A stretch of 64,000 bases of DNA from Sulfurovum sp. (GCA_027068485.1 JAMOSB010000012.1:48347-112346); one strand, 5' to 3'; positions 9,772 to 31,810 are shown, counted from the stretch's first letter. Notes: generated from the sequence alone by a model not told the origin. Numbers and translations are program-made.

Positions 9772-10390
9772 GATCCACACCATTATCTTCGATTTTGATG
9801 GGGTGATCCTCGACTCTGTGCCTGTCAAGACAGAGGCATTTAGACGACTCTTTGAGGCGTTTCCCTCGGAGCAGGTTGAGCAGTTTATCGCCTACCATGA
9901 GTACAATGGCGGGATCTCCCGCTATGTGAAGATCCAGTACTTCTTTGAGCAACTCCTCCAAACCTCTATCTCTCAAGCAGAGATATCCTCCTACGCCACA
10001 CGCTACTCAGAGTTGACCAAAGAGGAGCTAAGCAAGCCTCAGTATCTCATCACCCAGACCCTCACCTTTATCCAAGCCCACTACCAGCACCTCAACCTCC
10101 ATATCGCATCAGGTGCTGATCAGGCAGATCTTCGCTATATCTGTAATGCCTTGGGACTCTCTAAGTACTTTCTCACTATCGGTGGCTCCCCCACCCCCAA
10201 AGGGGAGATTGTCAAAGAGATTCTCTTGGCACACCACTACACGCAAGAGGAGACGATCTTGATTGGGGATAGTATCAATGACTTTGCCGCAGCAGAGGCT
10301 AACCATATCGGATTTTATGGCTTTAACAACCCCGATCTCCAAGCCGACCACCCCTATATCGAGCAGTTTGAGACCGTTGACTTTCTATGA
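9764..10390 (+). CDS. HAD-superfamily hydrolase (phosphatase, subfamily IA-like).
   Basis: IIFDFDGVILDS (DxDG motif I), and ILIGDSINDFAAA (motif IV). Confidence 0.85.
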   Translation: MAKIHTIIFDFDGVILDSVPVKTEAFRRLFEAFPSEQVEQFIAYHEYNGGISRYVKIQYFFEQLLQTSISQAEISSYATRYSELTKEELSKPQYLITQTLTFIQAHYQHLNLHIASGADQADLRYICNALGLSKYFLTIGGSPTPKGEIVKEILLAHHYTQEETILIGDSINDFAAAEANHIGFYGFNNPDLQADHPYIEQFETVDFL

Positions 10391-14567: not shown

Positions 14568-14589
14568 AGCACCTTCCTTTTGTATAGTA

Positions 14590-14621
14590 TAAACAACAAT
14601 AGTATAATTAAATGTTGTTTA
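14590..14621. promoter_or_regulatory. 9-bp perfect inverted repeat flanking a TATAAT box in the divergent intergenic region; operator-like.
   Basis: TAAACAACA (14590-14598) and TGTTGTTTA (14613-14621) lie 14 nt apart, with TATAAT at 14603-14608 between the arms. Confidence 0.35.
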
Positions 14622-14744
14622 ACCTATACTTTCAATCCCTTTATCCCAGTCTATTTTGGTAGCTATCGTTGAAAAAATCGCTTCCATAGATTAAACCAAG
14701 ATGCTATTAACTTTTTGATAAAATACTATTAAAAAAGGTACCCT

Positions 14745-16061: not shown

Positions 16062-16591
16062 TGTACCCACACAAAGCCCTCTTTCTTGATCGTGATGGGG
16101 TGATCAATATCGACTACGGCTATGTCTCCACCCAAGAGCAGTTTCACTTCTCTGAGGGGATCTTTGAGCTGGTGCGTCTCTTTGAGGAGGCGGGCTACTG
16201 GATCTTTGTCATCACCAACCAGTCAGGTATCGGTCGGGGCTACTATACCCAAGAGGCGTTTCATCAGCTAAGTGCGTGGATGTGTGAGGTGTTTCAAGCG
16301 CATGGCATCACCATCCAAGCTGTCGAGTACTGCCCCCACCACCCTGATGCCCACTGTCACTGTCGCAAACCCAATACAGGAATGATAGAGCACCTCACCG
16401 CACGCTACCCTATCGACTTGACACACTCTTGGCTCATCGGGGACAAACCCAGTGATATCGCTCTTGCCAACCACGCAGGGATAGGTGGGAGTATCGCCAT
16501 TGGTAGCACCCCTATCCCCACCAGTACCCTACACTTTGAGAGCATCACCGCGTGCTATGACTATATCCAACACAACCGAGGTAGATTATGA
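16061..16591 (+). CDS. gmhB: D-glycero-D-manno-heptose 1,7-bisphosphate phosphatase.
   Basis: TGATG overlap with the upstream gene. ALFLDRDGVINIDYGYV, ITNQSGIGRG, and CPHHPDAHCHCRKP (zinc-binding loop). Confidence 0.85.
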   Translation: MYPHKALFLDRDGVINIDYGYVSTQEQFHFSEGIFELVRLFEEAGYWIFVITNQSGIGRGYYTQEAFHQLSAWMCEVFQAHGITIQAVEYCPHHPDAHCHCRKPNTGMIEHLTARYPIDLTHSWLIGDKPSDIALANHAGIGGSIAIGSTPIPTSTLHFESITACYDYIQHNRGRL

Positions 16592-18018
16592 TAGAGACCC
16601 TACGCCAGACCCAACCCACAATCGCTGTTATTGGTGATTTGATGATCGATCACTACATCTGGGGAGCGTGTGAGCGTATCTCTCCAGAGGCTCCCGTCCA
16701 AGTCGTCTCTACCGATAAGGAGAGTATGGTACTAGGAGGGGCGGGTAATGTCCTCTCCAACCTTGTCGCCCTAGATGCCAAGGTCAGCCTCTACTCTGTC
16801 ATCGGAGAGGATCACAATGCCAAGCGACTCCAGAGCCTCCTAGAGACCCTCAACCCCGCACAGATGACCCTCATCTCCGAGAGCTACCGTGTCACCACCC
16901 AAAAGAGCCGTGTCATCGCCTCAGGTCAACAGATCTTACGCTTGGATGAGGAGAGTACCAATCCCATCGATGATACCTCTCAATCAGCACTACTGGAGGC
17001 ACTCTCACACAACATCTCCCACTACGATGCCCTACTACTCTCTGACTATGGTAAAGGGGTACTCACCCCCACGCTCTGCCACGCACTCATTGGACTCGCA
17101 CATCAGCAGGGGATCCCAATACTCATCGACCCCAAGGGAGCCGACTACCACAAATACCACGGGGCAACCCTTCTCACCCCCAACAAAAAAGAGGCTTCCC
17201 TCGCCTCGGGTATCCCCATCGATACCCCCCAACACCTCTCAGAGGCACTCCTCTACTTCAAAGAGCAGATCGACCTCACCTACGCCCTTATCACACTGAG
17301 TGAAGATGGAATAGGACTCCTAAGTGACCAGCTCACCACCATCCCCACTGTCGCACGAGAGGTGTTTGATGTCACAGGGGCAGGCGATACGGTCTTGGCA
17401 TCGCTAGGGGTCGCACTCGCTTCAGGTATCGATATCGTCTCGGCGTGTCACTTCGCCAACAAAGCCGCCGCTGTCGTCGTCGCCAAAGTCGGATCAGCCA
17501 CCGCCACACTCGCAGAGATCGAAGAGTATGAACACTCCCTCAACAAAGGCGAAGCCCAGAGCAAGATCAAAAACTTTGAGCAGATCGCCCGTATCACCCG
17601 ACGACTCAAGGAGCAGGGACGCAACATCATCTTCACCAATGGGTGCTTTGATATCTTGCACCGTGGACATGCAAGCTACCTAGAGCGTGCCAAAGCTCTT
17701 GGCGATATCCTCATTGTAGGACTCAACTCCGATGCGAGTATCACCCGACTCAAAGGGGAGAGCCGTCCCATCAACACCCTCGACGATCGTGCCTTTTTGC
17801 TTGGGGCATTGGAGAGTGTGGACTTTGTTGTCCCCTTCTATGAGGATACACCCTATAACCTCATCGAGCAGATACACCCTGATATCCTCGTCAAAGGGGC
17901 AGACTATGAGGGTAAGTGTGTTGTAGGCTCTAATCTTGCGGGAGAAGTACGCCTTTTGGAGTTTGTCGAGGGCAGAAGCACCTCTGCGATTATCGCCAAG
18001 ATAGAGACCAAGGAGTAG
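16588..18018 (+). CDS. hldE: Bifunctional heptose 7-phosphate kinase / heptose 1-phosphate adenylyltransferase.
   Basis: N-terminal ribokinase-like domain (DVTGAGDT) and C-terminal cytidylyltransferase-like domain (IIFTNGCFDILHRGHASYL). Confidence 0.9.
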   Translation: MIETLRQTQPTIAVIGDLMIDHYIWGACERISPEAPVQVVSTDKESMVLGGAGNVLSNLVALDAKVSLYSVIGEDHNAKRLQSLLETLNPAQMTLISESYRVTTQKSRVIASGQQILRLDEESTNPIDDTSQSALLEALSHNISHYDALLLSDYGKGVLTPTLCHALIGLAHQQGIPILIDPKGADYHKYHGATLLTPNKKEASLASGIPIDTPQHLSEALLYFKEQIDLTYALITLSEDGIGLLSDQLTTIPTVAREVFDVTGAGDTVLASLGVALASGIDIVSACHFANKAAAVVVAKVGSATATLAEIEEYEHSLNKGEAQSKIKNFEQIARITRRLKEQGRNIIFTNGCFDILHRGHASYLERAKALGDILIVGLNSDASITRLKGESRPINTLDDRAFLLGALESVDFVVPFYEDTPYNLIEQIHPDILVKGADYEGKCVVGSNLAGEVRLLEFVEGRSTSAIIAKIETKE

Positions 18019-18022
18019 CCCC

Positions 18023-19858
18023 ATGCCGACACAGACTTTTCCACTTTTTTTTAAAGCCAACCTACTCCTCACCGCACTACTCTTTACCCTCTTTTTGAGC
18101 TTCAACCAAGGCTATACACTCCTCACCTTTGGAGTGACACTCGCAGGAGCGATAGGGAGTGCGGGGGTACTCTACCTCCTCTTTGCACTGATTCTACTCC
18201 CCCTACGATGGTCACCACGCTGGAGACTTCCACTCTCCGCACTCCTCTTTATCCTCACCGATGTAGCCCTTCTTACTGACCTCTTTATCTACAAACTCTT
18301 TGGCTTTCATATCAATGCAATGGTACTCAATATCCTCACCTCCCCCGATGCACTCGACTCGATCCAAGCGGGGGTTATGCCTCTGATACTCTTTGGGGGG
18401 TTGGTGGTGGGGAGTGTGGCACTAGAGTGGTATCTCCTACACCGACTCCACCGCCTAAGCCTCCCCACACAGCAGAGACTCAACCGCCTGAGTAATCGCG
18501 TTATCCTCCTTCCCCTCCTTGTGATTATCCTTGGGGAGAAGGTGAGCTATGGGGTCGCCTCACTCTTCTCCTACAACGCCATTGTCTCCAAGTTTCGCGT
18601 GATTCCTCTCTATCAGCCCTTGACCTTCCGACGCATCGCCGCCAAACACTTTGGGTTCAAGGCAGAGGAGCAGGCCAAATACAGTATCCAGACCGATGCG
18701 ACCCTCCACTACCCTCTTCGCCCACTCACCCTTGCACCCGACCAGAAACCCTTCCCGATCTTTATCATCGCGAGTGACGCAGTCAAGTATACGATCCTCA
18801 GCCCCGAACTCACCCCACACCTCACCGCCTTTGCCAAGGAGTCCCTCAACTTTAAGCACCACTACAGTGGAGGCAATAGCACACGGTTTGGGATCTTTTC
18901 ACTGATGTATGGACTCAATGCCACCTACTGGTTTAGCTTCCTCAATGCCAACCAAAAGCCCCTACTCTTTGATATCCTCCAACAGCTCCACTATCAGATC
19001 GATATCTTCTCCTCGACCAACACCAACTGGCCAGAGTTTCGCAAGACCTGCTATGTGGCGATCCAATCCTCTATCCACGATAGGTTTGAGGGGGTACCAT
19101 GGAGAAAAGATCGACAAAATACCGACTGCTTCCTTCAGAGTCTCACCCCCACCACCACCCCACGCTTTAGCTTCGTCTTCCTTGATGCTCCACATGGCTA
19201 CTCCTACCCCCAAGCGTTCAACCTACACCACGCCCCCAAAGAGGAGATCAACTACCTCAAGGTAACCCAAGGGAGCCAAGAGCTTCAAAAGGTCATCAAA
19301 CGCTACAAAAATGCTGTCGCCTACAACGATGCCCTCTTTGGGGAGATGATCGCCAAACTCAAAGCGGTAGGACTCTATGAAGAGTCACTTATCCTCTTCA
19401 CCTCCGACCATGGGCAGGAGTTTTTTGAGCAGGGCAACTTCGGACACAACACCGCTTTCTCAGAGGGGCAGACCCATATCCCTCTACTGATGAAGCTCCC
19501 CAAGTCACTCCAAAACCAAGGCTTAGGGCGTGCGATCAATGACTCACTCAGTAGCCATCAAGACCTCGTCCCTACCCTCCTCACACTCCTAGGTGTCACC
19601 AGTGACCCCCAGAGCTATAGCAACGGTAAAGATCTCTTAGCCCCCACCTTCCACCGTGACTATGTCCTCAGTGCCAACTGGAACAACAACGCCATTATCA
19701 CCCCCACACGCACCTATCTCTTCTCCAACCTCCCCAACAAGATGTTTAGCAGTGAGATACGCGATAGCCAAAGCTACCAACTCCTCTCCAAGGAGCGGGT
19801 ACCAAGTCAACTCATCCTCCACGCGATCGATGAGAACAAAAAATTTATACGCCCCTAA
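18023..19858 (+). CDS. YejM/PbgA-like inner-membrane protein with a periplasmic alkaline-phosphatase/sulfatase-superfamily domain.
   Basis: AAGGAG RBS. Five N-terminal TM helices, then a sulfatase-like domain (FIIASDAV...FTSDHGQEF). Confidence 0.7.
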
Positions 19859-19868
19859 GGAGAGAGTA

Positions 19869-20435
19869 ATGCAAGCGATGATTCAGCGTGAACTTCATGC
19901 CCACCAAGAGACCCTAACCCACACCATCGAGACGATGCGACCTGCGATCGAAGAGGCACTCACGACCCTCATCTCAACCCTTCAGCGGGGGAACAAAATC
20001 CTACTCTGTGGCAATGGAGGCTCCGCAGCTGATGCCCAACATATCGCAGCCGAACTCACAGGACGCTACCGCATCGAACGCCAAGCCCTTCCCGCCATCG
20101 CCTTGAGTACCGATACCTCGGCTCTCACTGCCATCGCCAATGACTATGGGTATGACGCTGTCTTTGAGCGACAGGTCGAAGCGTTGGCACGCAAGGGGGA
20201 TCTACTCATTGGGATCTCAACAAGTGGCAACTCCACCAATATCCTCCGTGCCATACACAAAGCCAACGCCATGGGGTGTCAGACACTAGGGTTGAGTGGT
20301 GCCAAGGGGGGAGAGATGCGTAGCGTCTGTGATCTTAACCTCATCATCCCCTCAGATGCGACCCCTCGTATCCAAGAGATGCACATCATGCTAGGGCATA
20401 TCCTCTGCCAAGGGGTCGATGAGGCGTTTGCCTAA
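19869..20435 (+). CDS. gmhA: Phosphoheptose (sedoheptulose-7-phosphate) isomerase.
   Basis: AGGAG RBS before ATG 19869. [19 protein letters not shown], and GISTSGNS. The longer track ORF (from 19656) overlaps the upstream gene and is not GmhA-like. Confidence 0.9.
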
Positions 20436-20441
20436 TCCACG

Positions 20442-22271
20442 CTAGTGGTGAAGTCGCTTATCGTAGATATAGTAGCTTCCATAGAGGTACTCCAACCCCT
20501 CCTTGATGCGTGTTTGGTTCTGCTCCTGTTTACGGTAGTCCAGCCCATAGCACTGCGGTGCGTGAGACTTTTGATAGAGGACAAACCCCCCATCACTCAG
20601 ATAAGCATAGGCACCATGGTGGATCATCAAGGCTCGGGAGTGATCCCTACGGGTGAGATCCTCTCCCATCGCAGGGATATCCGCCTCCACCCCTGCTACA
20701 TCGAGTAGGGTCGGAGCGATGTCGATCTGATGGGTCACCCCACGCACTTCACGCGGTGGGAGATCCTTGGCGATAAACAACGCAGGGATACGAAACATCT
20801 TCACAGGAACTTTCGCCTCACCATAGATCTTGGCATTGTGGTCTGCCACCATCGCAAGTACCCCATCCTCAAAAAATTCTTCTCTCTTAAGCCACGCATA
20901 GAACTCCCCTAGAGCATAATCCGCATACTTAATCGCATTGGGAAATGACGCAACAGGGGCTTGGTCATAGTACTCAATCTTCCCCTCAGGGTAGTCAAAT
21001 GGCTTATGGGCAGAGAGGGTAAAGAGCATCAAGAAGAGTGGTTTATCACTCTGAGAGAGGATCTCCTCTGCTTTAGCATAGAGTGCCTCATCAGGAACAC
21101 CCCAAGTGTAGCGTTTGATCCCTCGATCAAAATCATACTTATCGATCACCTCATCAAAGCCGTTATTGAGTGCAAACCCCTTCATCGTATCAAACTTACT
21201 ATCTCCCCCATAGAGAAAGACTGTCCGATACCCTTTTGCTTGCATCGTGCGTGCGAGTGTCCAGAAGTGTGTTTGAGACTTAGGAAGCTTGAGATAGGTA
21301 CTCGCATAGATCGGAAAGAGCGAACTTAGCACCGCCTCAAAGCCTCGGTTGGAGCGATAGGAGGAGGAGTACATATTGGAGAGGAACAGCCCCTCTTTGC
21401 TCATCGCATCGAAGTGTGGTGTAGTGGGTGTCCCCCCAAGGCTCCCCACATAACTCGACCCAAAACTCTCCATCAACACCAAGACCACCTGTCGTTTAGA
21501 ACTAAAGTGTGTCGATTGGTGGTGGCGTAGTGTCCTAGAGGAGTCGTAGGGCTTGGGGCTAAGGGCTTGGAGCGATGCGATCGGAGAGGAGGGTATCTCA
21601 CCAAACACTGGCATCCCCTCTTTTTGTTTGAGGTAGAGGGCGTAGAGCAGTGAGAAGAGGGTGTTGTTGACAATATCGTTTTTGATCGTGGAGTTGGTGT
21701 AGCTATAGAAGCTCTGATTGGGTGTAGAGGAGTCAAAGGAGGAGCGTATCCCGATAAAAAGCACCACCAAGAGCAACGGAAGCAGGAGGAGTTTGGGGAG
21801 TATAGGCGTAGCCACCAGATGCTTTTGGCTCACCCCAAAGAGGCGGTAGGAGCCATAGACCAAGAGCGGTACCACCACCACCAAGACCTGCCAGTAGGAG
21901 ACCCACACCATCTCTAAGACCTCTTGTGGATAGGCTAGATACTCTACAAACTGATAGTTGAGCCGTGTACGAAACTCCTCAAAGAAGTAGTAGTTTGCCA
22001 CCTCCAGATACCCCAACACAAAAAAGACCCCCACCAGTAGCACCCGTGCCAACCAGACCAGATTGAGCGTAAAGAGTAGCAGTGGCACCACCAACAGCGC
22101 AGAAAGGACGATACTATCCATCCGCAACGCATAGAGAAAAAAGGGCAGATCCAAGACGATATCATACGCATAGACCAGCACCATCCTTGCCACCCAAAAG
22201 AGGAGGAGTACTCCAAGGGCATACCACCCCAAGAGTCGGTACCCTCGCAACACATCTCTAAACTTCTCCAT
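20442..22271 (-). CDS. LtaS/OpgB-type membrane phosphotransferase (sulfatase-fold; phosphoglycerol or phosphoethanolamine transferase-like).
   Basis: Multi-TM N-terminus. The extracytoplasmic domain has VVLVLMESFGSSYVG and LFTLSAHKPF motifs. Confidence 0.8.
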   Translation of the reverse strand: MEKFRDVLRGYRLLGWYALGVLLLFWVARMVLVYAYDIVLDLPFFLYALRMDSIVLSALLVVPLLLFTLNLVWLARVLLVGVFFVLGYLEVANYYFFEEFRTRLNYQFVEYLAYPQEVLEMVWVSYWQVLVVVVPLLVYGSYRLFGVSQKHLVATPILPKLLLLPLLLVVLFIGIRSSFDSSTPNQSFYSYTNSTIKNDIVNNTLFSLLYALYLKQKEGMPVFGEIPSSPIASLQALSPKPYDSSRTLRHHQSTHFSSKRQVVLVLMESFGSSYVGSLGGTPTTPHFDAMSKEGLFLSNMYSSSYRSNRGFEAVLSSLFPIYASTYLKLPKSQTHFWTLARTMQAKGYRTVFLYGGDSKFDTMKGFALNNGFDEVIDKYDFDRGIKRYTWGVPDEALYAKAEEILSQSDKPLFLMLFTLSAHKPFDYPEGKIEYYDQAPVASFPNAIKYADYALGEFYAWLKREEFFEDGVLAMVADHNAKIYGEAKVPVKMFRIPALFIAKDLPPREVRGVTHQIDIAPTLLDVAGVEADIPAMGEDLTRRDHSRALMIHHGAYAYLSDGGFVLYQKSHAPQCYGLDYRKQEQNQTRIKEGLEYLYGSYYIYDKRLHH

Positions 22272-22289
22272 TCTTCTTCCTTTATCTTA

Positions 22290-22898
22290 CTAAACTTCAC
22301 CCACGAGATAGCCCCGCTCCTCAAGGTAGCTAAGCACCGATGCCACTAACTCCTCTAGGCTCATCTGCTCACCTCTTAGCCAGATCTCAGGTGTAGTGGG
22401 GGCTTCATAGGGTGAGGAGATCCCCGTAAAGTTGGGGATCTCACCACTGCGTGCCTTACGATATAACCCCTTGGGGTCTCTTGCTTCACAGATCGCTAGG
22501 GGGGTATCGACAAATACTTCGATAAACTCCCCCTGCTCTACGACCCCTCTCACCTGCTCTCTATCAGCTTGAAAAGGGGAGATAAATGCACTCAAGACGA
22601 TCATCCCCGCATCGACAAAGAGCTTGCCCACCTCCCCGATACGACGGATATTCTCCACCCGATCCCTATCAGAAAAGCCCAATCCTCGATTGAGTCCTAG
22701 ACGGATATTGTCCCCATCAAGGAGATAGGTGTGGTGTCCCCGCGTGACGAGTTCCGCCTCCACCGCATTGGCGATGGTCGATTTGCCACTGCCACTCAAC
22801 CCCGTAAACCAAAGAATCGCAGGTTTTTGAGCCTTGAGTCTTGCCCGTTGTAGCTTGGTGACTTGTGGCGTATGCCATGTGAGATGCTTAGTTGACAT
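22290..22898 (-). CDS. cysC: Adenylyl-sulfate (APS) kinase, canonical.
   Basis: [20 protein letters not shown]-loop, [32 protein letters not shown], and FISPF. Start taken at ATG 22898; the alternative is GTG 22946. Confidence 0.85.
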
Positions 22899-23613
22899 AG
22901 TGACGCTTGATATAGGTGACGATCTGCTCTGTTGCCTCCTCGACACTCAGACGATCCGTATCGATGATGATCTCGGCATGTTGAGGCTCCTCATAGGGGT
23001 CATTAACCCCTGAGAAGTAGGGCAACTCCCCACGCAACGCTTTGGCATAGACCCCCTTGTAGTCTCGTGCTTGACAACTTTGAGGGGTCGCTTTGATATA
23101 GACTACTACCGTATTTTTGACCATGTGACGGATCGTTTTTCGACTCTCGGTATAGGGGGAGACAAAGGAGGCTACCGTAGAGATCGCATTATTTTGTAGG
23201 GTTTTGATCAGGTGTCCTATCCGTTTCATATGACGGTTACGATCTTCTCGACTAAACCCAATATTGGGTACCACATCGCGTATCTCTTTGGAGTCGAGTC
23301 GCTCAAGGGGGATATCCAGCTTCAACAGCTCCTCATAGACACGGTTGGCAATCGTCGTCTTACCACTCAGTGGCAACCCTGTAAACCAGAGATTAAACGG
23401 CTCAATACGCTCCCGCCCCCATCGTACCTTAAACCACACCCGCTCATGAAGCCAGTAGAGTCCTACCTTGAGCAGTGTCTCAATCATCCCCGCAGCAATC
23501 GCAAGATCGAGCCGATCAAAGAAGAAGTAGACAATCACAATGGTCGTTGTCGTCGCAATAACACGCCAGCTTATCCCCTTGGCGATGGAGCGGGTATTGG
23601 TCTCTTTATACAT
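22888..23613 (-). CDS. Fusion of a DUF2061-type membrane domain to a divergent APS-kinase-like domain.
   Basis: N-terminus [24 protein letters not shown]...[10 protein letters not shown]. The kinase domain has P-loop [16 protein letters not shown], but LDSKEIR replaces the canonical LDGDNxR. Confidence 0.8.
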
Positions 23614-25028
23614 TAGATTGCTTTACAACCCCACTCAGGAAAGTGTGATCGGATATAGGCATTGAGTGCGACCTCTGAGGCACTATAGGTACGCGGTGGG
23701 GTGATTGTCCTATCACTCTCTCGCTTTGCCACATCGACAATCATCCCTGCCCCTACGGTGTTGTTAGTGAGACGATCGATTAAGATAAAGCTCCCTGTCT
23801 GACGGTTCTGTCGATAGGCATCTACTGCGATAGGACGGGTGAGGCGGAGGCGTGCAGAGGCGATATCATTGAGCTGAAGTTGCTCCGTCTGCTCTCGCTC
23901 ATAGGTGTTGATATCGATACGGTAGTTGATATGCTCCACCACCCCCGCAATCAGACTACTCGCACACTTGATATCATAGGTTCGCCCCACCTCCATGGCT
24001 ACCTCATCCATCCAGACGAGCATCACTTTGAGCATATTGGAGACGCGTGGCAGGGTATTGGTATGTACCAGCATATCCCCACGACTGATATCCACCTCGT
24101 CTGTGGTGGTCACCGTCACCGCCATCTTTTTAGAGGCGACTTGGGATACCTCTCCTGCATTGAGGATCTCCTTGATATGGGTACTCTTCCCCGAGGGCAA
24201 TACCGTAATCGTATCCCCTACTTTGACCTCTCCACTCGCAACCGTCCCGCAAAAACCTCTAAAGTCTAGATTGGGGCGATTGACATACTGCACAGGGAGG
24301 CGAAAGGACTCAGCATGAGGCGATCGCTCCACCTTCAGCCCATCAAGAAGGCTCAGGAGTGGCTCTCCCTTATACCACCCAAGGTGAGGTGTTCGCTCTA
24401 CGACATTATCTCCCGTCAAAGCACTAAGCGGTATCGTATAGGTGTGGGGGATCCCTAACTCTTGAGCAAGAAGTCCATAGGAGGCTTTGATCTGCTCAAA
24501 CACCTCTTGACTAAAGTCGACTAGATCCATCTTATTGATCGCAACAATCACATGCTCTATCCCCAAGAGGTTGACAATATAGCTATGCCGTCGGGTCTGT
24601 GTGAGTATCCCCTTTCGTGCATCGATAAGGATGATTGCCACATCTGCGGTGGAGGCTCCTGTAACCATATTGCGTGTATACTGCTCATGCCCTGGAGTAT
24701 CAGCGATGATATATTTGCGATGCTCTGTCGCAAAGAAGCGGTACGCCACATCGATGGTGATCCCCTGCTCTCGCTCACTCTGCAATCCATCCACAAGCAG
24801 TGCAAGATCGATCGCTTCACCTGTGGTACCATACTTCTGGCTCTCACGCTTCACAGAGGCGAGTTGATCATCTAAGACCATCTGACTATCATAGAGTAGT
24901 CGCCCAATAAGTGTACTCTTCCCATCATCAACACTACCACAGGTGAGAAAACGGAGCATATCTTTCTGCTCATGTGCTTTAAGGTACGCCTCTATATCGG
25001 TTGTGATGGCTTCTTTTTGGTTTGACAT
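23613..25028 (-). CDS. cysN: Sulfate adenylyltransferase subunit 1 (GTPase).
   Basis: GSVDDGKSTLIGRLL, DTPGHEQY and NKMDL GTPase motifs. No fused APS-kinase domain. Confidence 0.9.
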   Translation of the reverse strand: MSNQKEAITTDIEAYLKAHEQKDMLRFLTCGSVDDGKSTLIGRLLYDSQMVLDDQLASVKRESQKYGTTGEAIDLALLVDGLQSEREQGITIDVAYRFFATEHRKYIIADTPGHEQYTRNMVTGASTADVAIILIDARKGILTQTRRHSYIVNLLGIEHVIVAINKMDLVDFSQEVFEQIKASYGLLAQELGIPHTYTIPLSALTGDNVVERTPHLGWYKGEPLLSLLDGLKVERSPHAESFRLPVQYVNRPNLDFRGFCGTVASGEVKVGDTITVLPSGKSTHIKEILNAGEVSQVASKKMAVTVTTTDEVDISRGDMLVHTNTLPRVSNMLKVMLVWMDEVAMEVGRTYDIKCASSLIAGVVEHINYRIDINTYEREQTEQLQLNDIASARLRLTRPIAVDAYRQNRQTGSFILIDRLTNNTVGAGMIVDVAKRESDRTITPPRTYSASEVALNAYIRSHFPEWGCKAI

Positions 25029-25029
25029 C

Positions 25030-25941
25030 CTAAAAATACCCCTCTATCTTTTTGCGTTCCATCGCTCCCTCACTCTCCTTGTCGATAAGTCGCCCCTCTC
25101 GCTCACTACTCGTAGAGAGGAGCATCTCTTGGATAATCTCAGGGAGGGTGGAGGCGGTGGAGGCGATGGCTCCTGTGAGTGGATAGCACCCTAGCGTACG
25201 AAACCGTACCATCTCTTTGGTAGCAGTTTTGCGTAGTGCCTCAGGGACACGGTCATCATCGACAAGGATCTTTGTCCCCTCATAGGCTACCACCTCTCGC
25301 TCTTTGGCAAAGTAGAGTGAGGGGATCTCAATAGATTCGAGATAGATATACTGCCAGATATCTAGCTCTGTCCAGTTGCTCAAAGGGAAGACGCGTACCG
25401 ACTCCCCCTTGTTGATTGAGGTATTGTAGAGACTCCACAGCTCGGGGCGTTGGTTTTTGGGATCCCATCGGTGGTGCTGATCTCTAAACGAGAAGATACG
25501 CTCCTTAGCACGGCTCTTCTCCTCATCACGCCTAGCACCTCCGATGATCGCATCATACCCCCCCGCATCGAGGGCTTGCTTGAGTGCCTCAGTCTTCATC
25601 ACCTCCGTATGGACTCTACTCCCATGGGTGAAGGGGCTGATATCCATCGCAATCCCCTTAGGGTTGGTGTGTACTACCAGATCGAGTCCCAACTCTCTCG
25701 CACGCCGATCACGAAAGGCGATCATCTCATGAAACTTCCAGAGCGTATCGACATGGAGAAACTTCAAGGGAGGCTTAGCAGGAGCAAAGGCTTTCATCGC
25801 GAGGTGGAGCATCACAGAGCTATCTTTGCCCACACTATACATCATCACAGGATTCTCAAAGACCGCTACCACCTCACGGAGGATATGGATCGACTCCGCT
25901 TCAAGCTGTTTGAGATGGGTCAGTCGCTCTTGGGTTAGCAT
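25030..25941 (-). CDS. cysD: Sulfate adenylyltransferase subunit 2.
   Basis: [15 protein letters not shown]..., [14 protein letters not shown] (PP-loop SxGxDS), and a C-terminal KKIEGYF. Confidence 0.9.
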
Positions 25942-25994
25942 GAAGACTCCTTTGGTTGGGGGGATACTTTAGTGGTAGTATACCATAGTACGGG

Positions 25995-27041
25995 TTATCC
26001 CTCTGCTACCATCTGCTTATAGCGCTCAAAGGCGGGGTACTTGGTGAGTCTACCCTCTCGGTCATCGACGAGTCCATAGCCCGTAGCGATGAGTTGATGC
26101 CAGTAGATTCGCTCCACTTTGCCACTCTCACGGGCGATGGTGTGGTAGGTACCCATATAGCGTGCGTAGTCTAGGGGGCTGACACACTCTCGCTCGGAGG
26201 TGGGGGCGTAGGGGGCGGTGTTGGAGAGGGGCCAGTTGACCTCGGTGATGTAGAGGTGTTGGGTAGTCTTGGGGGAGAGTCTCATGAGTGCATAGAGCAT
26301 ATCGATCTTGGTACGGGTGTCAAAAATCCCCATCTGTTTATTGGTCGGAGCCCCGCGTCGATCGACATAGAGTAGTGCGCAGAAGCGATCATAGCGGAGG
26401 TTAAAACCATTGAAGAGGGTGCGAATAGTGTAGTGGTACTCAAAGTCAATCACCGAAGAGCCTACCAACTTTAGCTTGGGGTAGTCACGATCTCGTAGTG
26501 TTGCAATCTGCTCATACCACCCCAGATACTCCTCCATCGAGAAGAAGCCCCACTTGGTACGGTTGATGGCGTGACCAATCTGATACTCCGTGACAAACGG
26601 ACTAAACTTCTTAAAGATCTCTGCGACATCTCGTTGGAGTAGGTCACTATCTTCGATATGTTCGCGATCTTGGATAATCGAGAGTAAAATCTGCTTATCT
26701 GCTCCAAAACTCTGGGCAAAGGCGACCACCGCATCGATACGATCCATCTGCCATAGGGGCATCCGAATCAGAAGGTGCTTCACCCCAAGCTCCTCAATCA
26801 ACCCAACCTGTGCCTCTCCCTTGTCAATATCGACCCCCATACCATAAAACGCCTCCCCCTCGATCGCCTCCCCCTTAACCCATCGCATCATAAGCATCCC
26901 AAGCGGGAAAAAGATCATCGTAAGTAGCAGAAGGGGCAGATAACTCCAGCGATGCTTTGTTCGCATCTGTTGTTTATAGACTCGGTCTTTGATAGGATAG
27001 GGCTGATCAGAGTAACCATCCCAGATAAATGGTGCTTTCAT
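25995..27041 (-). CDS. Membrane-anchored hypothetical protein with a glycoside-hydrolase-like (TIM-barrel, clan GH-A-like) domain.
   Basis: One TM helix (YLPLLLLTMIFFPLGMLMM). YITEVNWP resembles the nucleophile-Glu strand of GH-A enzymes. The assignment is weak and made by eye only. Confidence 0.45.
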   Translation of the reverse strand: MKAPFIWDGYSDQPYPIKDRVYKQQMRTKHRWSYLPLLLLTMIFFPLGMLMMRWVKGEAIEGEAFYGMGVDIDKGEAQVGLIEELGVKHLLIRMPLWQMDRIDAVVAFAQSFGADKQILLSIIQDREHIEDSDLLQRDVAEIFKKFSPFVTEYQIGHAINRTKWGFFSMEEYLGWYEQIATLRDRDYPKLKLVGSSVIDFEYHYTIRTLFNGFNLRYDRFCALLYVDRRGAPTNKQMGIFDTRTKIDMLYALMRLSPKTTQHLYITEVNWPLSNTAPYAPTSERECVSPLDYARYMGTYHTIARESGKVERIYWHQLIATGYGLVDDREGRLTKYPAFERYKQMVAEG

Positions 27042-27108
27042 TCTACTTCCACTTTGCTACTGCTATAGTTCATACACGACTCCTCTCGTTGGTAGATTAT
27101 AACCTATC

Positions 27109-28137
27109 TTACCCCAATGCCCTCAACCGCTTCCATATCTTATACTTACGGATGAGGTTGAGTGGCTTTCGCTTGATGGTATGATGGCGTAAGAAATCCA
27201 AGCAGGCCTCTACCACCCGTTGGCTAGAGCGTCCATCCGCATAGGGGTGGGTCTGTGCGATAAAGCCCTCTAGTGCCTCCATCACCTTGGGAGGTCGAGT
27301 CAGTGCCTCTCGAATCGCCCCCTCGATGGCGTGGGCATCGGTGATATTGATCATATAGGGTTGGGGTTGGTTGTTGTTGAGTGTGACCACGGGCTTGTGC
27401 TGTAGGACAAACTCTGTGATGGCAGAGGTGGTATCGGAGAGCATCACATCGGCACGCGTAAAGAGCGGAATCAACTCTGTGGTGTCATAGAAGTGAAAAT
27501 ACTCCCCCTCCATCGCCAAAAACTGCTCCACAATCTCCCGCTCCATCTTGGGGTGTAACACCGCGATAAACTCCCACTCCCCTAGCCTTGCGAGTCGGGC
27601 GATCTCTGCAACTGCGGTGGGGTTCTTGGCTAGACTAAGACGCGTGGTGAAGGTGGAGCTGATCATCACCACTTTACGCGGTGTAGAGGGTAGCGATCTA
27701 GGCAGGGGGAAGAGTGGATCGACCTTACTCCACCCCGTCTCGACCACCTCAAAGTGGCGGTGCTTGGCTTGTAGTGCCTTAAAGGGTATGGTGGTACTAG
27801 GGCCTTGGGTACAGTAGAGATCAAAAAAGCCTCGGATATTGAAATGCCCCTTCGCATTGGAGCGTTTGCCCACACTAAACCCATGAAAAATCTGCACCTT
27901 AATCCCACTAAAGAAGTGCGGGACGACATTGGTTGCAACCAGTACAACATCGGGCTGATAGTGCTTCACCTCTGCAACCGTATGAAGCACCCTAGCGGTT
28001 TGATCGAGATGGGCTTTGGTCGCAGGCTCATCACAAAACCAATGCACCACTAGTCCGCGTCGCTCTATCTCCACTTGGAGGGGGCGACAGATAGGGATAC
28101 TGTAGGGTTGGGAGAGGTAGAGGAGAAATTTGGTCAT
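27109..28137 (-). CDS. CDP-glycerol glycerophosphotransferase (TagB/TagF)-like protein.
   Basis: ADVMLSDTTSAITEFVLQHKPVVTL resembles the conserved TagF-family C-terminal motif. Confidence 0.65.
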   Translation of the reverse strand: MTKFLLYLSQPYSIPICRPLQVEIERRGLVVHWFCDEPATKAHLDQTARVLHTVAEVKHYQPDVVLVATNVVPHFFSGIKVQIFHGFSVGKRSNAKGHFNIRGFFDLYCTQGPSTTIPFKALQAKHRHFEVVETGWSKVDPLFPLPRSLPSTPRKVVMISSTFTTRLSLAKNPTAVAEIARLARLGEWEFIAVLHPKMEREIVEQFLAMEGEYFHFYDTTELIPLFTRADVMLSDTTSAITEFVLQHKPVVTLNNNQPQPYMINITDAHAIEGAIREALTRPPKVMEALEGFIAQTHPYADGRSSQRVVEACLDFLRHHTIKRKPLNLIRKYKIWKRLRALG

Positions 28138-28149
28138 CTCTCACCTCCC

Positions 28150-28743
28150 CTAGAGCATATTGCTAGTGATAGCATTATCATCATGGAAAGTATCCCACCC
28201 CTTAACCACCTCTTGCCACGCTCCATAACGATAGCTCAGATAGGCTTCACTCTCCTGAGGGATGAGATAGGATTTGCCATCAAAGGTGTGTCGCTTGAGG
28301 TGCTGATAAAAGTGTGCAGGGACAGATTTTTTCTTCTGCCCCACCTGCCAAAAGTACTCCCCCTCCTGCTCAAACTTGATAAAGATATCGAGTGCTACCT
28401 CCCCACGGATAAAGTGAAACTTACGGTTGCGTATTTTGATGATGCGTTTGATCCCCTTTTTAAACGGGGCATCATCTCGCTCAAACTCCTTAAACCAGAC
28501 CATATAGCCTAGCTTACGGATCTCTCCCACTGCATCAAGTAGGGCATCATAGTAGGCTTCGGTGAGGGAGATATCCATATCGTTATCCCACGGAAGTAGA
28601 CGATTTTCGCGTATGACCCCAAGGAGTGTCCCCCCCTCTAGCCAATACTCAATCCCTTTGTGATCAAGTAGATCTGTAACGCGTCGTAGCATCGTCAAGG
28701 CGATTGTGCCATTTTTCCCCTCAAGGGTGTATTTGCCTGCCAT
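28150..28743 (-). CDS. LicD-family phosphotransferase (phosphocholine/polyol-phosphate transferase family).
   Basis: YWLEGGTLLGVIRENRLLPWDNDMDISL (LicD DxD motif). Confidence 0.8.
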   Translation of the reverse strand: MAGKYTLEGKNGTIALTMLRRVTDLLDHKGIEYWLEGGTLLGVIRENRLLPWDNDMDISLTEAYYDALLDAVGEIRKLGYMVWFKEFERDDAPFKKGIKRIIKIRNRKFHFIRGEVALDIFIKFEQEGEYFWQVGQKKKSVPAHFYQHLKRHTFDGKSYLIPQESEAYLSYRYGAWQEVVKGWDTFHDDNAITSNML

Positions 28744-28744
28744 A

Positions 28745-29485
28745 TTAGCCTTTCAATTGTTTCAATCGTTTTTTACGGGAGAGGTAGCGTTGTTGCTTCT
28801 CCAGATAGCCTTGTAGTAAGCCCCAAAGCTCCTCCACACGCTCCCCTGAGTGCTTCGCGTAGAGGGTGACTAGCGTGTAGTTATCCTCACGGTTGGAGGT
28901 CAACTTCGCGAGGCTCTTCATACGCAACGCACTATCAAGGCTCAAAAACTCCATACGATTGAGATCAATCAACGAGAAGTGATAGCCTCCCTCAAGTAGT
29001 TTGACCAAGATATTGCCTGGGGAGTAGTCGACATGGTAGACCCCTTTGGTGTGCAGGTCATAGGTAAAGGCGACAAACGCCTCTAGTATCGCCTCACGCC
29101 CCTCAAACGCAGGATCCTTCAAGACCGCTCGTATCTCAAAATCATACGCAAAGAGTCCACTAATATAGTAACTCTCCCCAAACAGAAAGCGGGAGGGGTA
29201 CTCATGGTAGCCTATCGGGGTCGGGGTATTGACCCCTAGTGTGACAAGACGCAATCCATTCTCATAAGAGCGTTTCGCCTTGGAGGGGCGAAAGAAGCGG
29301 TAGATGAGTTGGTTGAGACGGTGGGGTATCTTAAAGGACTTCACTACATAGGTCTGCTCTTGGTGGGTGACCACCTTGAGGGTGTTGCGTTTGTGAAAGA
29401 GTGTCTCATTGCCCTCTTGGGCAAAATAGTGCTGTATATTGGCGACAAATGCCTCATCACGAGGGTTAGCGACTTCATATCCCAT
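28745..29485 (-). CDS. Lipopolysaccharide kinase family protein (Kdo/WaaP/InaA-like).
   Basis: GVYHVDYSPGNILV catalytic-loop-like motif and LIDLNRMEF. Size and layout fit PF06293. Confidence 0.7.
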   Translation of the reverse strand: MGYEVANPRDEAFVANIQHYFAQEGNETLFHKRNTLKVVTHQEQTYVVKSFKIPHRLNQLIYRFFRPSKAKRSYENGLRLVTLGVNTPTPIGYHEYPSRFLFGESYYISGLFAYDFEIRAVLKDPAFEGREAILEAFVAFTYDLHTKGVYHVDYSPGNILVKLLEGGYHFSLIDLNRMEFLSLDSALRMKSLAKLTSNREDNYTLVTLYAKHSGERVEELWGLLQGYLEKQQRYLSRKKRLKQLKG

Positions 29486-30543
29486 TATGGCTCCTCTAGT
29501 AGGGTGACAATACGCTCAGAGACCTGCCCATCGACCACCCCACAGATCGCTTGGGTGTAGGCGGTGCGTATGGCGTGATAGCGTTCAGGGTATTGGAGGT
29601 TTGCCTTGACCATGGTGACCATCTGGGCATAACTCTGGGCATTGTCCCCAATCTTACGGTAGCTCTCTATCCCCTGATCGAGACGGTTGAAGAGCTTTTT
29701 TGGGTTGAGGATATAGCTCCATCGGAGCTTCAAAAAGCGATTGAGAATGACAGGTTTATCCAGTGCCGTAAACTCAAAAATCGCTGAACTCTCATCGGAG
29801 ATCATCACATCACACAGATGCAAAAAAGGTACCAAGGAGTACTCACTACTCTCACACACCACACAGTTGGGGTAACTCGCCCAGTGCCTAAAGCGTGCTT
29901 GCTGTTTGGCGTAGCGTTTGCGGTGAAGGCTGAGATAGTGCGGTTTGATAATGATATTGCACGCGTTAAAGTCCTGAGGAAAATCCATCGCCATCTTCTC
30001 GATAGAGGAGGGGTAAAAGGTGGGAGCGTAGAGAATCGTGGGCTTGGAGGGGTCGAGGTGGTACTTCTCTTGATAGTGGGTTTGTTCTGCCTCAGAGAAG
30101 TGTACAACCGCATCGAGCTTAGAGAAGCCCACCTTATGGAGCTTATGGGCAAATGCAGGATAGGCGTGACGCAAGGAGCTATCACGATACTCCCCCTCTA
30201 CAAGGACGATATCAAACTCCTCCAACGCACGGGCATAGTTACAGTGTTTGGTTCCTACCCCATGATCCATAAAGAGTGTCGTCGCAGAGATCTGAGCGAT
30301 AGACTCAAAGAAGTTGGCAAAGAAGATTGCATCTACCGTAGAGTCAAAGAGTTCTGACTCCTCCCATCCATAGTCTAGCCCCTCTCTCTGGGCTATCTCC
30401 TCCATCAGCACACTGTTTTGTTGGGTGCTAAGGATATAGCGTACCTGATCCCCCCGCTCCTCTAGCACCCTACCAATTGGTAAGAAGTGTGGAAAGTAGT
30501 AGGGGTAGGCGATATAAAATAGTACCGTGAGGGGCTTAGACAT
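29485..30543 (-). CDS. CDP-glycerol glycerophosphotransferase (TagF)-like protein.
   Basis: CDVMISDESSAIFEFTALDKPVIL motif. Start taken at ATG 30543 (MSKPLTVLFY), which gives an 8-nt overlap with the upstream gene. Confidence 0.75.
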   Translation of the reverse strand: MSKPLTVLFYIAYPYYFPHFLPIGRVLEERGDQVRYILSTQQNSVLMEEIAQREGLDYGWEESELFDSTVDAIFFANFFESIAQISATTLFMDHGVGTKHCNYARALEEFDIVLVEGEYRDSSLRHAYPAFAHKLHKVGFSKLDAVVHFSEAEQTHYQEKYHLDPSKPTILYAPTFYPSSIEKMAMDFPQDFNACNIIIKPHYLSLHRKRYAKQQARFRHWASYPNCVVCESSEYSLVPFLHLCDVMISDESSAIFEFTALDKPVILNRFLKLRWSYILNPKKLFNRLDQGIESYRKIGDNAQSYAQMVTMVKANLQYPERYHAIRTAYTQAICGVVDGQVSERIVTLLEEP

Positions 30544-31810
30544 GAGGACTCCTTGGGGTCGTCGGCTCAGGGGTACCATACTCTATAGAGAGCAGATACA
30601 TCACCATCACACTATAGCCATAAAATGGGATAAAGAACTTACTCGTAAAGAGTTCTGAGAGGCTAAAGAGTGTCACAATCGTCGTCACAATCAACACCAC
30701 AAAGGGAGCGGAGTGACTCGCTAGGGCAATTCGAAGCTGAGTAGAGAGGATCCAAAGCAACAACACAAGCCCCACCACACCAAACTGCATAAACATAAAC
30801 AGATACATATTGTGCGGATTGAACTGTCCTGAGCCATCACCTAGACACTGCTTAAAGAGCTGTTTGGCTTCGGGCTTACCTATGAGGCGTTGGAGTTCGA
30901 GGATACCATCACCTGAGCCGACCCCCAAGAGTGGATTGGCACGCCCAATCTGATAGGCGTAGTACCAAAACTCAAACCGACAGGTCAAGGAGCGTCGCTT
31001 GGTGGTATCTTGCTCTAAGACCTGAGCCTCAAGATCCATCGTCTTAATCACCTTGATTGTTGAGTCGACCTGATGCTTCACCTGAGGGAGAGTACCATAC
31101 GCAAGCAGTGCGAAGAGTACCAACCCACCAATCATCCCCACAACCCCACGCCACGAGAGCCTAAAGTGATAGAGTATTACAATCGCCGTAGCAATAAAGA
31201 GGTTGATATAGCCCATCCGTGAACCACTCACCTCAAGGGTATAGACCATCAATAGTGCAAGCAGTACCATCACCCCTGTATGCCATGAGACAAGGGGACG
31301 GGTGGCGATACGGTCTAAGAAGTAACTATACGCAAAGATAAGCATCCCCGCAAGATAGACACGGTGGACATAGGGTGAGGTGTCGATAGTATAGGGGATA
31401 TCGAGTAGACCCAAGGCGATCAAGCCTGTCATAATACCCGTCGTAATCAACGCCAACAGCATCGACCAGAGGTAGTAAGGGATAAACTTTCGCTGGTACA
31501 TCGAGAGGGCTATAGGGACGATCAGATAGAGTAGTGGGCGTTCAAGTATCTTACGTCCTGCGTAGAAGTTCTCTGTCCAGAGTAACCCCACCACAAACAT
31601 CCCCACAAAGAGCAGAAAAGTCCAGACAAGTTTATGAGATCTAATCCGCTCCCACTTTGCATGGAAATCTCCTGTCACAAGCCACAAAACCCCTAGCAGT
31701 ACCAAAATCGCACGGCTCGCCTTATGGTCAAAAAAGAGTACAAATCCAAAGAGGATAATCAGCAGATTAGCAAAGAGATAAAGCTTTGGCTTCACACGAG
31801 TAGCATACAT
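30536..31810 (-). CDS. O-antigen ligase / Wzy_C-family polytopic membrane protein (WaaL-like).
   Basis: About 10-12 TM helices, with a periplasmic loop containing GSGDG...FNPHNMYLFMFMQFG (Wzy_C-type H motif). Confidence 0.75.
   Translation of the reverse strand: MYATRVKPKLYLFANLLIILFGFVLFFDHKASRAILVLLGVLWLVTGDFHAKWERIRSHKLVWTFLLFVGMFVVGLLWTENFYAGRKILERPLLYLIVPIALSMYQRKFIPYYLWSMLLALITTGIMTGLIALGLLDIPYTIDTSPYVHRVYLAGMLIFAYSYFLDRIATRPLVSWHTGVMVLLALLMVYTLEVSGSRMGYINLFIATAIVILYHFRLSWRGVVGMIGGLVLFALLAYGTLPQVKHQVDSTIKVIKTMDLEAQVLEQDTTKRRSLTCRFEFWYYAYQIGRANPLLGVGSGDGILELQRLIGKPEAKQLFKQCLGDGSGQFNPHNMYLFMFMQFGVVGLVLLLWILSTQLRIALASHSAPFVVLIVTTIVTLFSLSELFTSKFFIPFYGYSVMVMYLLSIEYGTPEPTTPRSPHV

Follow-up and report, generated by a model that had tools for sequence, protein, structure and literature searches.

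Why should a bacterium that appears unable to reduce sulfate keep a set of sulfate-activation genes inside a lipopolysaccharide (LPS) operon? The question arises in a 64,000-nucleotide stretch of DNA from Sulfurovum sp. (GCA_027068485.1 JAMOSB010000012.1:48347-112346; the window), in which four contiguous minus-strand genes span positions 22290-25941: cysD, cysN, a gene that fuses a DUF2061 domain to an adenosine 5′-phosphosulfate (APS) kinase domain (the fusion), and a canonical cysC. An original prediction, made from the sequence of the window, held that this cassette provides 3′-phosphoadenosine 5′-phosphosulfate (PAPS) as a sulfuryl donor for glycan sulfation instead of serving assimilation. 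The analysis presented here favors, with a probability of about 0.7, a non-assimilatory PAPS supply that serves surface-glycan sulfation. The four genes are:

25030-25941, minus strand: cysD, small subunit of sulfate adenylyltransferase (NF009214, 508.2 bits against a cut-off of 413)
23613-25028, minus strand: cysN, GTPase subunit of sulfate adenylyltransferase, 471 aa (PRK05124, 680.3 bits against a cut-off of 590)
22888-23613, minus strand: DUF2061::APS-kinase fusion, 241 aa (PF09834 at aa 10-60 and PF01583 at aa 72-218, 144 bits)
22290-22898, minus strand: cysC, canonical APS kinase, start revised from 22946 (PRK03846, 306 bits against a cut-off of 163)

Profile matches confirmed the predicted set of cysD, unfused cysN, a divergent APS-kinase fusion and canonical cysC as contiguous and co-oriented, with a correction to the start of cysC. 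CysD also exceeds the TIGR02039 cut-off (476 bits vs. 396.6). The alignment of CysN to the 632-position CysNC model covers positions 2-439 only, so no kinase is fused to it. As both subunits score above curated cut-offs and their genes are adjacent, CysDN is predicted to act as a GTP-coupled heterodimeric sulfate adenylyltransferase. The fusion scores 156.7 bits on TIGR00455, whose cut-off is 138.7. The most likely start of CysC is the ATG at 22898, giving a protein of 202 aa and an 11-nt overlap of cysC with the stop of the fusion. Its motifs are intact ([20 protein letters not shown] and KGLYRKAR); it also carries [16 protein letters not shown] and FISP, and the Walker A pattern GxxxxGK[ST], LDGDN, and FISP were all found. 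The cysN stop and the fusion start share the sequence TAATG, and cysD and cysN are separated by 1 nt. Such overlapping stops and starts suggest the layout of translationally coupled genes. The identity of CysD to orthologs in three relatives carrying the same cassette (G013, G021, and G006) is 84-85%, compared with 83-86% for the housekeeping protein PurA in the same genomes. Relaxed selection on the cassette, considered on account of a long CysD tree branch, was rejected given that CysD identity within the genus equals that of PurA. A species-level relative was also sought for comparison of the locus, and the best match, at 83-85%, came from metagenomes.

The metabolic setting of the cassette was examined in the whole genome, an assembly of 1.73 Mb in 38 contigs with an estimated completeness of 98.4%, in which the window lies on contig C12. 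A scan of every open reading frame (ORF) of at least 150 aa in the window found no cysH, sulfite reductase, or sulfate transporter gene, which bears out the claim that sulfate reduction and transport are missing from the 64 kb. Across the genome, a search with PF01507 (PAPS_reduct) returned nothing but cysD above the cut-off, and no siroheme sulfite reductase was found with NIR_SIR (PF01077), a model that was positive in 11 of 14 control genomes. The check for a second assimilatory cys locus and for cysH that the original prediction had proposed was thereby run: cysD is present as a single copy, the cassette holds the sole cysDN, and its two kinase genes are the only APS-kinase genes above noise. 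Half of the outcome that the prediction had named against itself, namely that this should be the only cysDN copy, is therefore true; the PAPS-supply reading is not refuted by it, because there is no reductive branch to feed.

The remaining sulfur genes are consistent with this picture. CysQ is encoded on contig C30 (297 bits vs. a cut-off of 228.8), a SulP+STAS permease on contig C36, and the O-acetylhomoserine/O-acetylserine sulfhydrylase MetY scores 554 bits against a cut-off of 495, while no CysK/M was found above the cut-off in the genome. Judged from its gene content, the organism is predicted to import sulfate, activate it to PAPS, recycle 3′-phosphoadenosine 5′-phosphate (PAP), and fix sulfide directly, but to be incapable of reducing sulfate. 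Since APS, PAPS, and sulfite would not be reduced, and sulfide can be fixed through MetY, PAPS would be made for sulfuryl transfer. In the proposed mechanism, CysD and CysN would make APS from sulfate with ATP and GTP, and canonical CysC would phosphorylate APS to PAPS. The PAPS would then enter sulfuryl transfer, with a cell-surface glycan or LPS as the acceptor suggested by where the genes lie and by the comparison with relatives. By-product PAP would be cleared by the unlinked CysQ, encoded in a second glycan locus. The fusion would take part as a membrane-tethered APS-kinase paralog that keeps its P-loop and APS-binding residues and carries Lys in place of the second catalytic Asp.

The second surface-glycan locus, which holds cysQ and reaches the contig end (C30 ~13800-30570; L055 and L057), encodes UDP-glucose dehydrogenase, CysQ, a CMP-sugar synthetase/GT28 protein, NeuB, an HprK-related kinase-like ORF of 366 aa, and an APH-like kinase. 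It further contains FnlA/B/C-like enzymes, PIG-L, a methyltransferase, GT10, a Wzx-type flippase, and a 444-aa ORF with no Pfam match.

Relatives of the strain separate the two possible uses of cysDN. Scans covered 61 genomes of the genus and 151 Campylobacterales genomes; the resulting counts come from related genomes, are not independent samples, and describe a pattern without testing it, which is a reservation about the PAPS-supply reading, although the pattern itself is consistent. Type A loci, present in 9 of the 61 genus genomes, consist of a free ~77-aa DUF2061 gene, cysH, cysD, cysN, and a siroheme reductase of ~530 aa, with no APS kinase. Type B loci, present in 17 of the 61 including this one, have the order cysD-cysN-DUF2061::APSK-cysC. 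Only two genomes of the genus contain both, one of them the closed genome G021. There, the type A locus (L058, G021:C1:1432500-1442500) reads DUF4395-DUF2061-CysH-CysH-CysD-CysN-NirA/Sir-like, a layout also found in G016, G059, and G089, and the type B locus (L059) reads UDP-glucose dehydrogenase-epimerase-CysD-CysN-fusion-CysC-CysQ-like-unknown-Sulfotransfer_3. Both tandem CysH proteins of G021 exceed the APS-reductase cut-off (264.8 and 263.5 vs. 235.3). As these CysH copies appear to be APS reductases and type A loci have no kinase, assimilation in this clade would need no PAPS. Sulfurimonas denitrificans is likewise described as assimilating sulfate without PAPS (PMC4584964). The CysD tree groups the type A copies in one clade (99/99 support) and places CysD of this genome outside it, among the type B copies.

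The surroundings of type B loci point to glycans. Their flanks carry genes for epimerase/dehydratases, RmlA- and ManC-type nucleotidyltransferases, UDP-glucose dehydrogenase, DegT aminotransferase, GT2 glycosyltransferases, and ABC-2 transporters, and in 16 of 18 long type B loci an Inositol_P-family (CysQ-like) gene follows cysC. Sulfotransferase genes (PF00685 or PF13469) are present in 15/17 type B genomes vs. 5/44 others in the genus. In at least 10 genomes the sulfotransferase lies on the contig of the cassette, within 2-25 kb and often 2-6 kb, and at least 10-12 of 42 further cassette loci of at least 8 kb show one by insensitive single-sequence queries. In addition, cysH is missing from 15 of the 17 type B genomes of the genus and from 18 of the 24 fusion-bearing genomes of the order. 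The same gene order recurs in Sulfurimonas, Sulfuricurvum, Sulfurovum, Hydrogenimonas, Malaciobacter, and other Campylobacterota. The proposal that the cassette supplies PAPS instead of feeding assimilation is thus supported by the missing reductive branch, by CysQ and MetY, and by the sulfotransferase-bearing glycan loci of relatives; embedding in a surface-glycan cluster was found both here and in those relatives.

Several further arrangements were observed in these loci. At the head of the type A loci (L058, L060, L061, and L062), before cysH, stand a DUF4395 gene and a free gene for a 76-aa DUF2061 protein, and DUF4395 may be another uncharacterized partner of sulfate assimilation. In G021, a 291-aa ORF with no Pfam match (L059:5178-6053, minus strand) lies between the CysQ-like gene and the sulfotransferase gene and may encode an additional part of the sulfation module. 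The fusion and cysC occur as a pair with no adjacent cysDN in L025, L035, G208:C3, and G128:C5, with cysD 49 kb away in G128 and, in G208, only in a type A locus on another contig. The two kinase genes can thus be parted from those of the sulfurylase. In Neomarinimicrobiota metagenome-assembled genomes (MAGs; L037-L039), cysQ, a DUF2061::APSK gene with canonical DGD, cysD, and cysN are followed by a short APS-kinase-like piece of 24-29% identity, so that a second phylum combines the same components in another order.

What the fusion contributes is a separate matter. An AlphaFold2 (AF2) model built with 23 orthologs (mean confidence score, pLDDT, 81.9) contains helices at residues 2-32 and 35-65, which a short linker joins to an APS-kinase fold modeled with confidence (pLDDT about 85-93). 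The helices are moderately hydrophobic, and Pfam labels DUF2061 a predicted membrane protein. The fusion is therefore predicted to be a two-helix membrane hairpin joined to a short-loop APS-kinase fold. Its P-loop reads GLPLSGKT, and LDSKEIR stands where LDGDNIR is expected, so that the second Asp is Lys. The best Protein Data Bank (PDB) matches of the kinase domain, 2YVU (E 4e-35), 7YQ0, and 8A8H (to 1.5e-31), all keep LDGD. The fusion and the neighboring CysC share 33% identity. Origin of the fusion as a decayed tandem duplicate of cysC was considered and rejected, as its kinase domain belongs to the short-loop (archaeal-type) lineage.

The altered motif is conserved. Among 24 aligned Campylobacterota orthologs (23 loci and the window), the P-loop GLP(L/M)(S/C)GK(T/S) is found in all 24 and (L/I)DSK(D/E) in 23, with DSSD in the remaining one, and a canonical CysC is also present in nearly all of these loci. 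In human PAPSS1, the substitutions D87A and D89A each abolish APS-kinase activity (PMC8528679), and the Lys of the fusion stands at the equivalent of D89. The fusion accordingly has the fold and the Walker A motif of an APS kinase but not both aspartates of DGDN. The Neomarinimicrobiota DUF2061::APSK proteins retain canonical GLSGSGKS and LDGD, in loci with no full-length CysC.

A wider survey shows how often this has happened. The fusion matches 12,550 proteins at E ≤1e-3, and the best 150 cluster representatives were classed by alignment. Among the 49 fused to DUF2061, 34 keep DGD and three have DS[KR]; the motif is replaced in other ways in the remaining 12, some of which also have a broken P-loop. 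Among the 96 with no DUF2061, 85 have DGD, four DAD, and two DGN, while three are N-terminally truncated DS[KR] sequences and two are unaligned at the motif; the remaining 5 of the 150 have a partial DUF2061 domain. In these best 150 representatives, DGD is lost in 15/49 DUF2061-fused kinases vs. 6/96 others. Because DGD was lost repeatedly, and differently each time, in the membrane-tethered form, the pattern is better explained by repeated conversion to a nucleotide-binding protein without catalytic activity than by the gain of one new specificity. The kinase domain of the fusion also matches Penicillium chrysogenum ATP sulfurylase (PDB 1I2D/1M8P, E about 7e-22), whose C-terminal APS-kinase-like domain is non-catalytic, binds PAPS, and regulates sulfate activation. 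That domain is soluble and sits on a homo-oligomeric ATP sulfurylase, whereas here the fold is carried on a DUF2061 hairpin beside CysDN, where it may have a regulatory role. From its motifs, the fusion is best regarded as a putative non-catalytic or weakly catalytic nucleotide-binding subunit that would tether or regulate sulfate activation at the membrane, and not as a second kinase.

The strongest alternative concerns the fusion only and leaves the function of the cassette as a whole untouched: the fusion may be an active kinase with changed substrate or kinetics, either a 3′-kinase for another nucleotide-linked donor or a membrane-localized second APS kinase. The Walker A Lys/Thr, the adenine-stacking Phe/Tyr, both Arg residues, and FVSPY are conserved, as might be expected of such an enzyme, and the acidic residue that follows the Lys (DSKD/E) might substitute in catalysis, a point against a non-catalytic role. 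Descent from a different APS-kinase lineage than CysC, and hence not from a decayed duplicate, speaks in the same direction. A precedent for a 3′-kinase of this fold exists, as the corresponding step in the cytidine diphosphate (CDP)-phosphoramidate pathway is assigned to the APS-kinase homolog Cj1415. Together, Cj1415, Cj1416, Cj1417, and Cj1418 make CDP-phosphoramidate 3′-phosphate in the Campylobacter capsule locus (PMC11800397). However, the Asp required in the human enzyme is replaced in every aligned Campylobacterota ortholog, nearly all of the aligned loci supply a canonical CysC beside the fusion, and the varied losses of DGD are those expected of repeated catalytic loss. Within the cassette, the fusion gene always lies between cysN and cysC, and it is not accompanied by Cj1416-1418-like genes. 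An active kinase is therefore the less likely account of the fusion, though one to be taken seriously. A Cj1415-like phosphoramidate pathway in the window was judged unlikely, as the glutamine amidotransferase (GATase) of the window is HisH, encoded next to HisA.

The other half of the fusion links it to sulfate activation by a second line of evidence. The PF09834 model finds 54 DUF2061 copies in the 151 Campylobacterales genomes, in two size classes. Free copies lie directly upstream of cysH-cysD in 28 of 30 cases and fused copies within 3 kb of cysD in 21 of 24, so that 49 of the 54 lie within 3 kb of cysD or cysH. Outside this order, a Bifidobacteriaceae MAG has cysC-cysD-cysN flanked by two DUF2061 genes; with the queries used, no cys neighbors of DUF2061 were found in four distant loci (Nitrospira, Bryobacterales, and two Bacteroidota). 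Since CysDN is common to both locus types, DUF2061 may act with CysDN or in sulfate entry. Only six mentions of DUF2061, all incidental, were found in the literature. It is tentatively proposed, with the odds still against it, that DUF2061 is an unrecognized membrane component of bacterial sulfate activation, occurring as a free ~77-aa hairpin beside cysH-cysDN and fused to APSK in PAPS loci, and that the DSK-type fusion is a dead kinase tethering or regulating CysDN-CysC through binding of APS or PAPS. That the fusion itself passes the sulfuryl group to a membrane-bound acceptor in genomes with no intact sulfotransferase is very doubtful.

Which enzyme would use the PAPS in this strain is the weakest link in the argument. 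The original prediction had put forward the protein encoded at one end of the window:

1854-3485, plus strand: degenerate Sulfotransfer_1-like domain, GT2, and coiled coil (PF00685, E 4e-12, profile positions 54-193 of 255)

Its N-terminus is the only sulfotransferase-family domain found in the genome. The 5′-phosphosulfate-binding (5′-PSB) loop reads YPQSGDA, where all 10 closest homologs have YPRSGNT and estrogen sulfotransferase has YPKSGTT; the 3′-phosphate-binding FFRSGK..SWK has been lost through a deletion of 12 residues. The catalytic-His region (TTHHH, aligned to KTH) and RDGRES are kept. Sulfation by this protein is consequently not supported, given the loss of 5′-PSB residues and of the 3′-phosphate-binding motif relative to the 10 homologs. 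Genome searches with PF13469, PF03567, and PF17784 (Sulfotransfer_2, _3, and _4) gave nothing. A search with PF09037 (Stf0) also gave nothing in the genome and is uninformative, since control genomes gave nothing either. A regular-expression search for the 5′-PSB motif in all ORFs of at least 120 aa returned one low-complexity ORF and no credible candidate.

Three other proteins were considered as sulfotransferases and rejected. The 348-aa neighbor of CysD belongs to a large Campylobacterota family that is not linked to the cassette elsewhere, the C-terminal 530 aa of GT2_730 (3470-5662) resemble TagF-type GT-B transferases with weak scores, and the 366-aa ORF of the cysQ locus encodes an HprK-related P-loop kinase-like protein. 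An unrecognized sulfotransferase, the other option of the original prediction, may still be encoded, although these searches yielded no candidate for it.

These results weigh against the PAPS-supply reading: the searches yielded no intact PAPS-dependent sulfotransferase in the genome, and the sulfotransferases found in 15/17 type B genomes have only a degenerate counterpart here. The same holds for the lack of linkage between cysQ and the cassette, and for the literature, in which no chemically evidenced sulfated glycan was found for this organism or any Campylobacterota. A gene could also be missing from the assembly, which consists of 38 contigs and cuts off the second glycan locus at the end of one of them. 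PAPS output and glycan sulfation in this strain are regarded as probable.

Some of these points can be turned into an alternative of their own, in which the cassette still makes PAPS but the strain has recently lost its sulfotransferase, leaving a module that awaits decay or re-use. The degenerate state of the sole sulfotransferase domain would fit such a history, as would the parting of cysQ from the cassette, unlike in the loci of 16/18 relatives, and the LtaS-like neighbor, which is unique to this genome and suggests a rearranged locus. However, none of the four ORFs is disrupted, all exceed their curated cut-offs by a wide margin, their overlapping starts and stops have been kept, and CysD is as conserved as PurA. 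Moreover, synthesis of APS and PAPS costs ATP and GTP, PAP is toxic, and a useless cassette should vanish fast from a 1.73-Mb genome. A leftover module is for these reasons improbable, and a PAPS supply in use for surface-glycan sulfation is preferred. The remaining alternative, that the cassette feeds cysteine synthesis after all, with cysH and sir in unassembled DNA or in unrecognized families, can appeal to the single cysDN copy, to the draft state of the assembly, and to the use of cysDNC in assimilation of the Escherichia coli type, but is highly improbable: beyond the empty PAPS_reduct and NIR_SIR searches, the position of CysD outside the type A clade, the rarity of cysH in cassette-bearing genomes, and the direct sulfide route through MetY, the reductive genes of relatives form a compact locus of 6-7 genes with its own cysDN and no kinase, all of which would need to be missing.

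The cassette lies near the end of a longer run of genes, in which three further features concern it directly:

20442-40546, minus strand: LPS/glycan operon of 20 co-oriented genes including the cassette; largest intergenic gap 67 nt, many overlaps
25995-27041, minus strand: membrane-anchored 348-aa protein, encoded directly upstream of cysD; no Pfam or NCBIfam match
20442-22271, minus strand: LtaS/OpgB-like membrane transferase of the alkaline-phosphatase superfamily, 18 nt after cysC (PF00884, 159 bits)

The operon contains waaC, lpxL, a PAP2 gene, two licD genes, a sugar-modification set, an MsbA-like ABC exporter gene, waaL, tagF, and a Kdo-kinase-like gene, and continues with a third licD, a tagF-like gene, the 348-aa gene, cysD, cysN, the fusion, cysC, and, as the last gene, the ltaS-like gene. 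Family matches thus agree with the description of the cassette as lying among glycosyltransferase (GT), LicD, TagF, and LtaS-type genes inside an LPS operon; the glycosyltransferases of the window sit on the plus strand. The operon is probably co-transcribed. Between the cassette genes there is no terminator-like site and promoter-like matches occur at chance level, and these scans are uninformative. The 348-aa protein has 2891 homologs, mostly in Sulfurovum and other Campylobacterota, with one source naming it a glycosyl hydrolase, and its gene was found near the cassette in one other locus only (L029). A role for the LtaS-like protein as a sulfatase or sulfate-handling enzyme was ruled out, as it has no C/SxPxR formylglycine motif and its gene lies beside the cassette in no relative.

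Elsewhere in the window, a DUF3413+Sulfatase gene (18023-19858, plus strand) and the LtaS-like gene (20442-22271, minus strand) are convergent, encode membrane proteins of the alkaline-phosphatase superfamily, and flank gmhA. Neither protein has a formylglycine motif, and both probably decorate LPS with phosphoglycerol or phosphoethanolamine. Between the glycosyltransferase genes, positions 5659-10390 (plus strand) encode a CTP_transf_3 cytidylyltransferase, an HpcH/HpaI aldolase, a D-2-hydroxyacid dehydrogenase, an NAD epimerase, a putative cyclase, and a HAD phosphatase, a run that resembles a biosynthetic route to a sugar or substituent of the CMP-activated keto- or hydroxy-acid type. The plus-strand glycosyltransferase operon is broken by a lone AAA_14/DUF4143 ATPase gene (13374-14567, minus strand) just before the WbaP-like initiating transferase, and G+C content falls to 0.44 in the 2-kb bin at this gene. 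Further along, a 779-aa ORF without a Pfam match and the gene of a 786-aa protein that ends in a PD-(D/E)XK nuclease domain (AddB-like) lie close together (48739-51078 and 51758-54118, both minus strand), and the 779-aa ORF could be a divergent AddA/RecB-type partner of the AddB-like protein.

Comparison with known systems places the cassette among dedicated PAPS suppliers. In rhizobia, NodP and NodQ, acting with NodH, combine sulfate activation and an APS kinase to supply PAPS. Mycobacterium tuberculosis has the CysD/CysNC sulfate-activating complex (PMC4373884). As in both, activation of the CysDN type is coupled here to an APS kinase, which in those systems yields PAPS for glycolipid or oligosaccharide sulfotransferases. 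In NodQ and CysNC, however, the kinase is fused to CysN. The cassette instead has a CysN without a kinase and encodes two distinct proteins of the kinase fold, of which one is predicted to be membrane-tethered and has an altered motif. The mycobacterial complex also feeds APS to CysH, which this genome cannot do. A closer parallel is Vibrio sp. KMM 8419, in which second copies of cysD-cysN-cysC lie in a capsule gene cluster with sulfotransferases, a combination that its authors regard as a hallmark of sulfated-polysaccharide synthesis (PMC11641403). Both organisms have PAPS-synthesis genes within a surface-polysaccharide cluster, although the sulfated capsular polysaccharide of the Vibrio strain is chemically proven and the case here is known from genes. 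The Vibrio genes are extra copies beside an assimilatory set, with intact sulfotransferases and no reported DUF2061::APSK, while this genome has a sole cysDN, no reductive pathway, and a single, degenerate sulfotransferase domain.

Within the Campylobacterota, the fusion resembles Campylobacter jejuni Cj1415 (annotated cysC; PMC11800397) in being an APS-kinase homolog encoded in a surface-glycan locus, and the product of Cj1415 is a 3′-phosphorylated nucleotide donor analogous to PAPS. Unlike Cj1415, which lacks a cysDN partner and acts on CDP-phosphoramidate together with Cj1416-1418, the fusion always has cysN and cysC as neighbors and bears a DUF2061 domain. In the related genus Sulfurimonas, S. 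autotrophica encodes CysDN and CysC without CysH or CysI, a set recorded as an incomplete assimilation pathway with no function offered (PMC4584964). The gene complement is the same as here; the glycan context, the linkage to CysQ and sulfotransferases, and the fusion are absent from that review.

The concept of PAPS cassettes for surface-glycan sulfation is already established by the Vibrio capsule, NodPQ, and the mycobacterial complex. What is new is a conserved Campylobacterales module with a membrane-tethered, motif-altered kinase paralog, and the link of DUF2061 to sulfate activation. Also new is that in most carriers this module is the only sulfate-activation system, present without reduction, and that it occurs in this strain without a recognizable sulfotransferase. 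The strain is in this respect a natural case of PAPS supply in which to seek a new sulfotransferase family. The link gives DUF2061 a concrete functional context, and the analysis identifies a family of membrane-tethered APS-kinase paralogs with repeated loss of DGD, which may be pseudo-enzymes that organize PAPS synthesis. The PAPS-supply reading offers a function for a gene set recorded in genome papers on sulfur-oxidizing Campylobacterota as incomplete sulfate assimilation. It predicts sulfated surface glycans, none of which has been reported, in many representatives of Sulfurovum, Sulfurimonas, Sulfuricurvum, and the Arcobacter group from vents and sediments. A sulfated envelope would influence how these bacteria bind metals, attach to minerals and hosts, and are recognized by phages.

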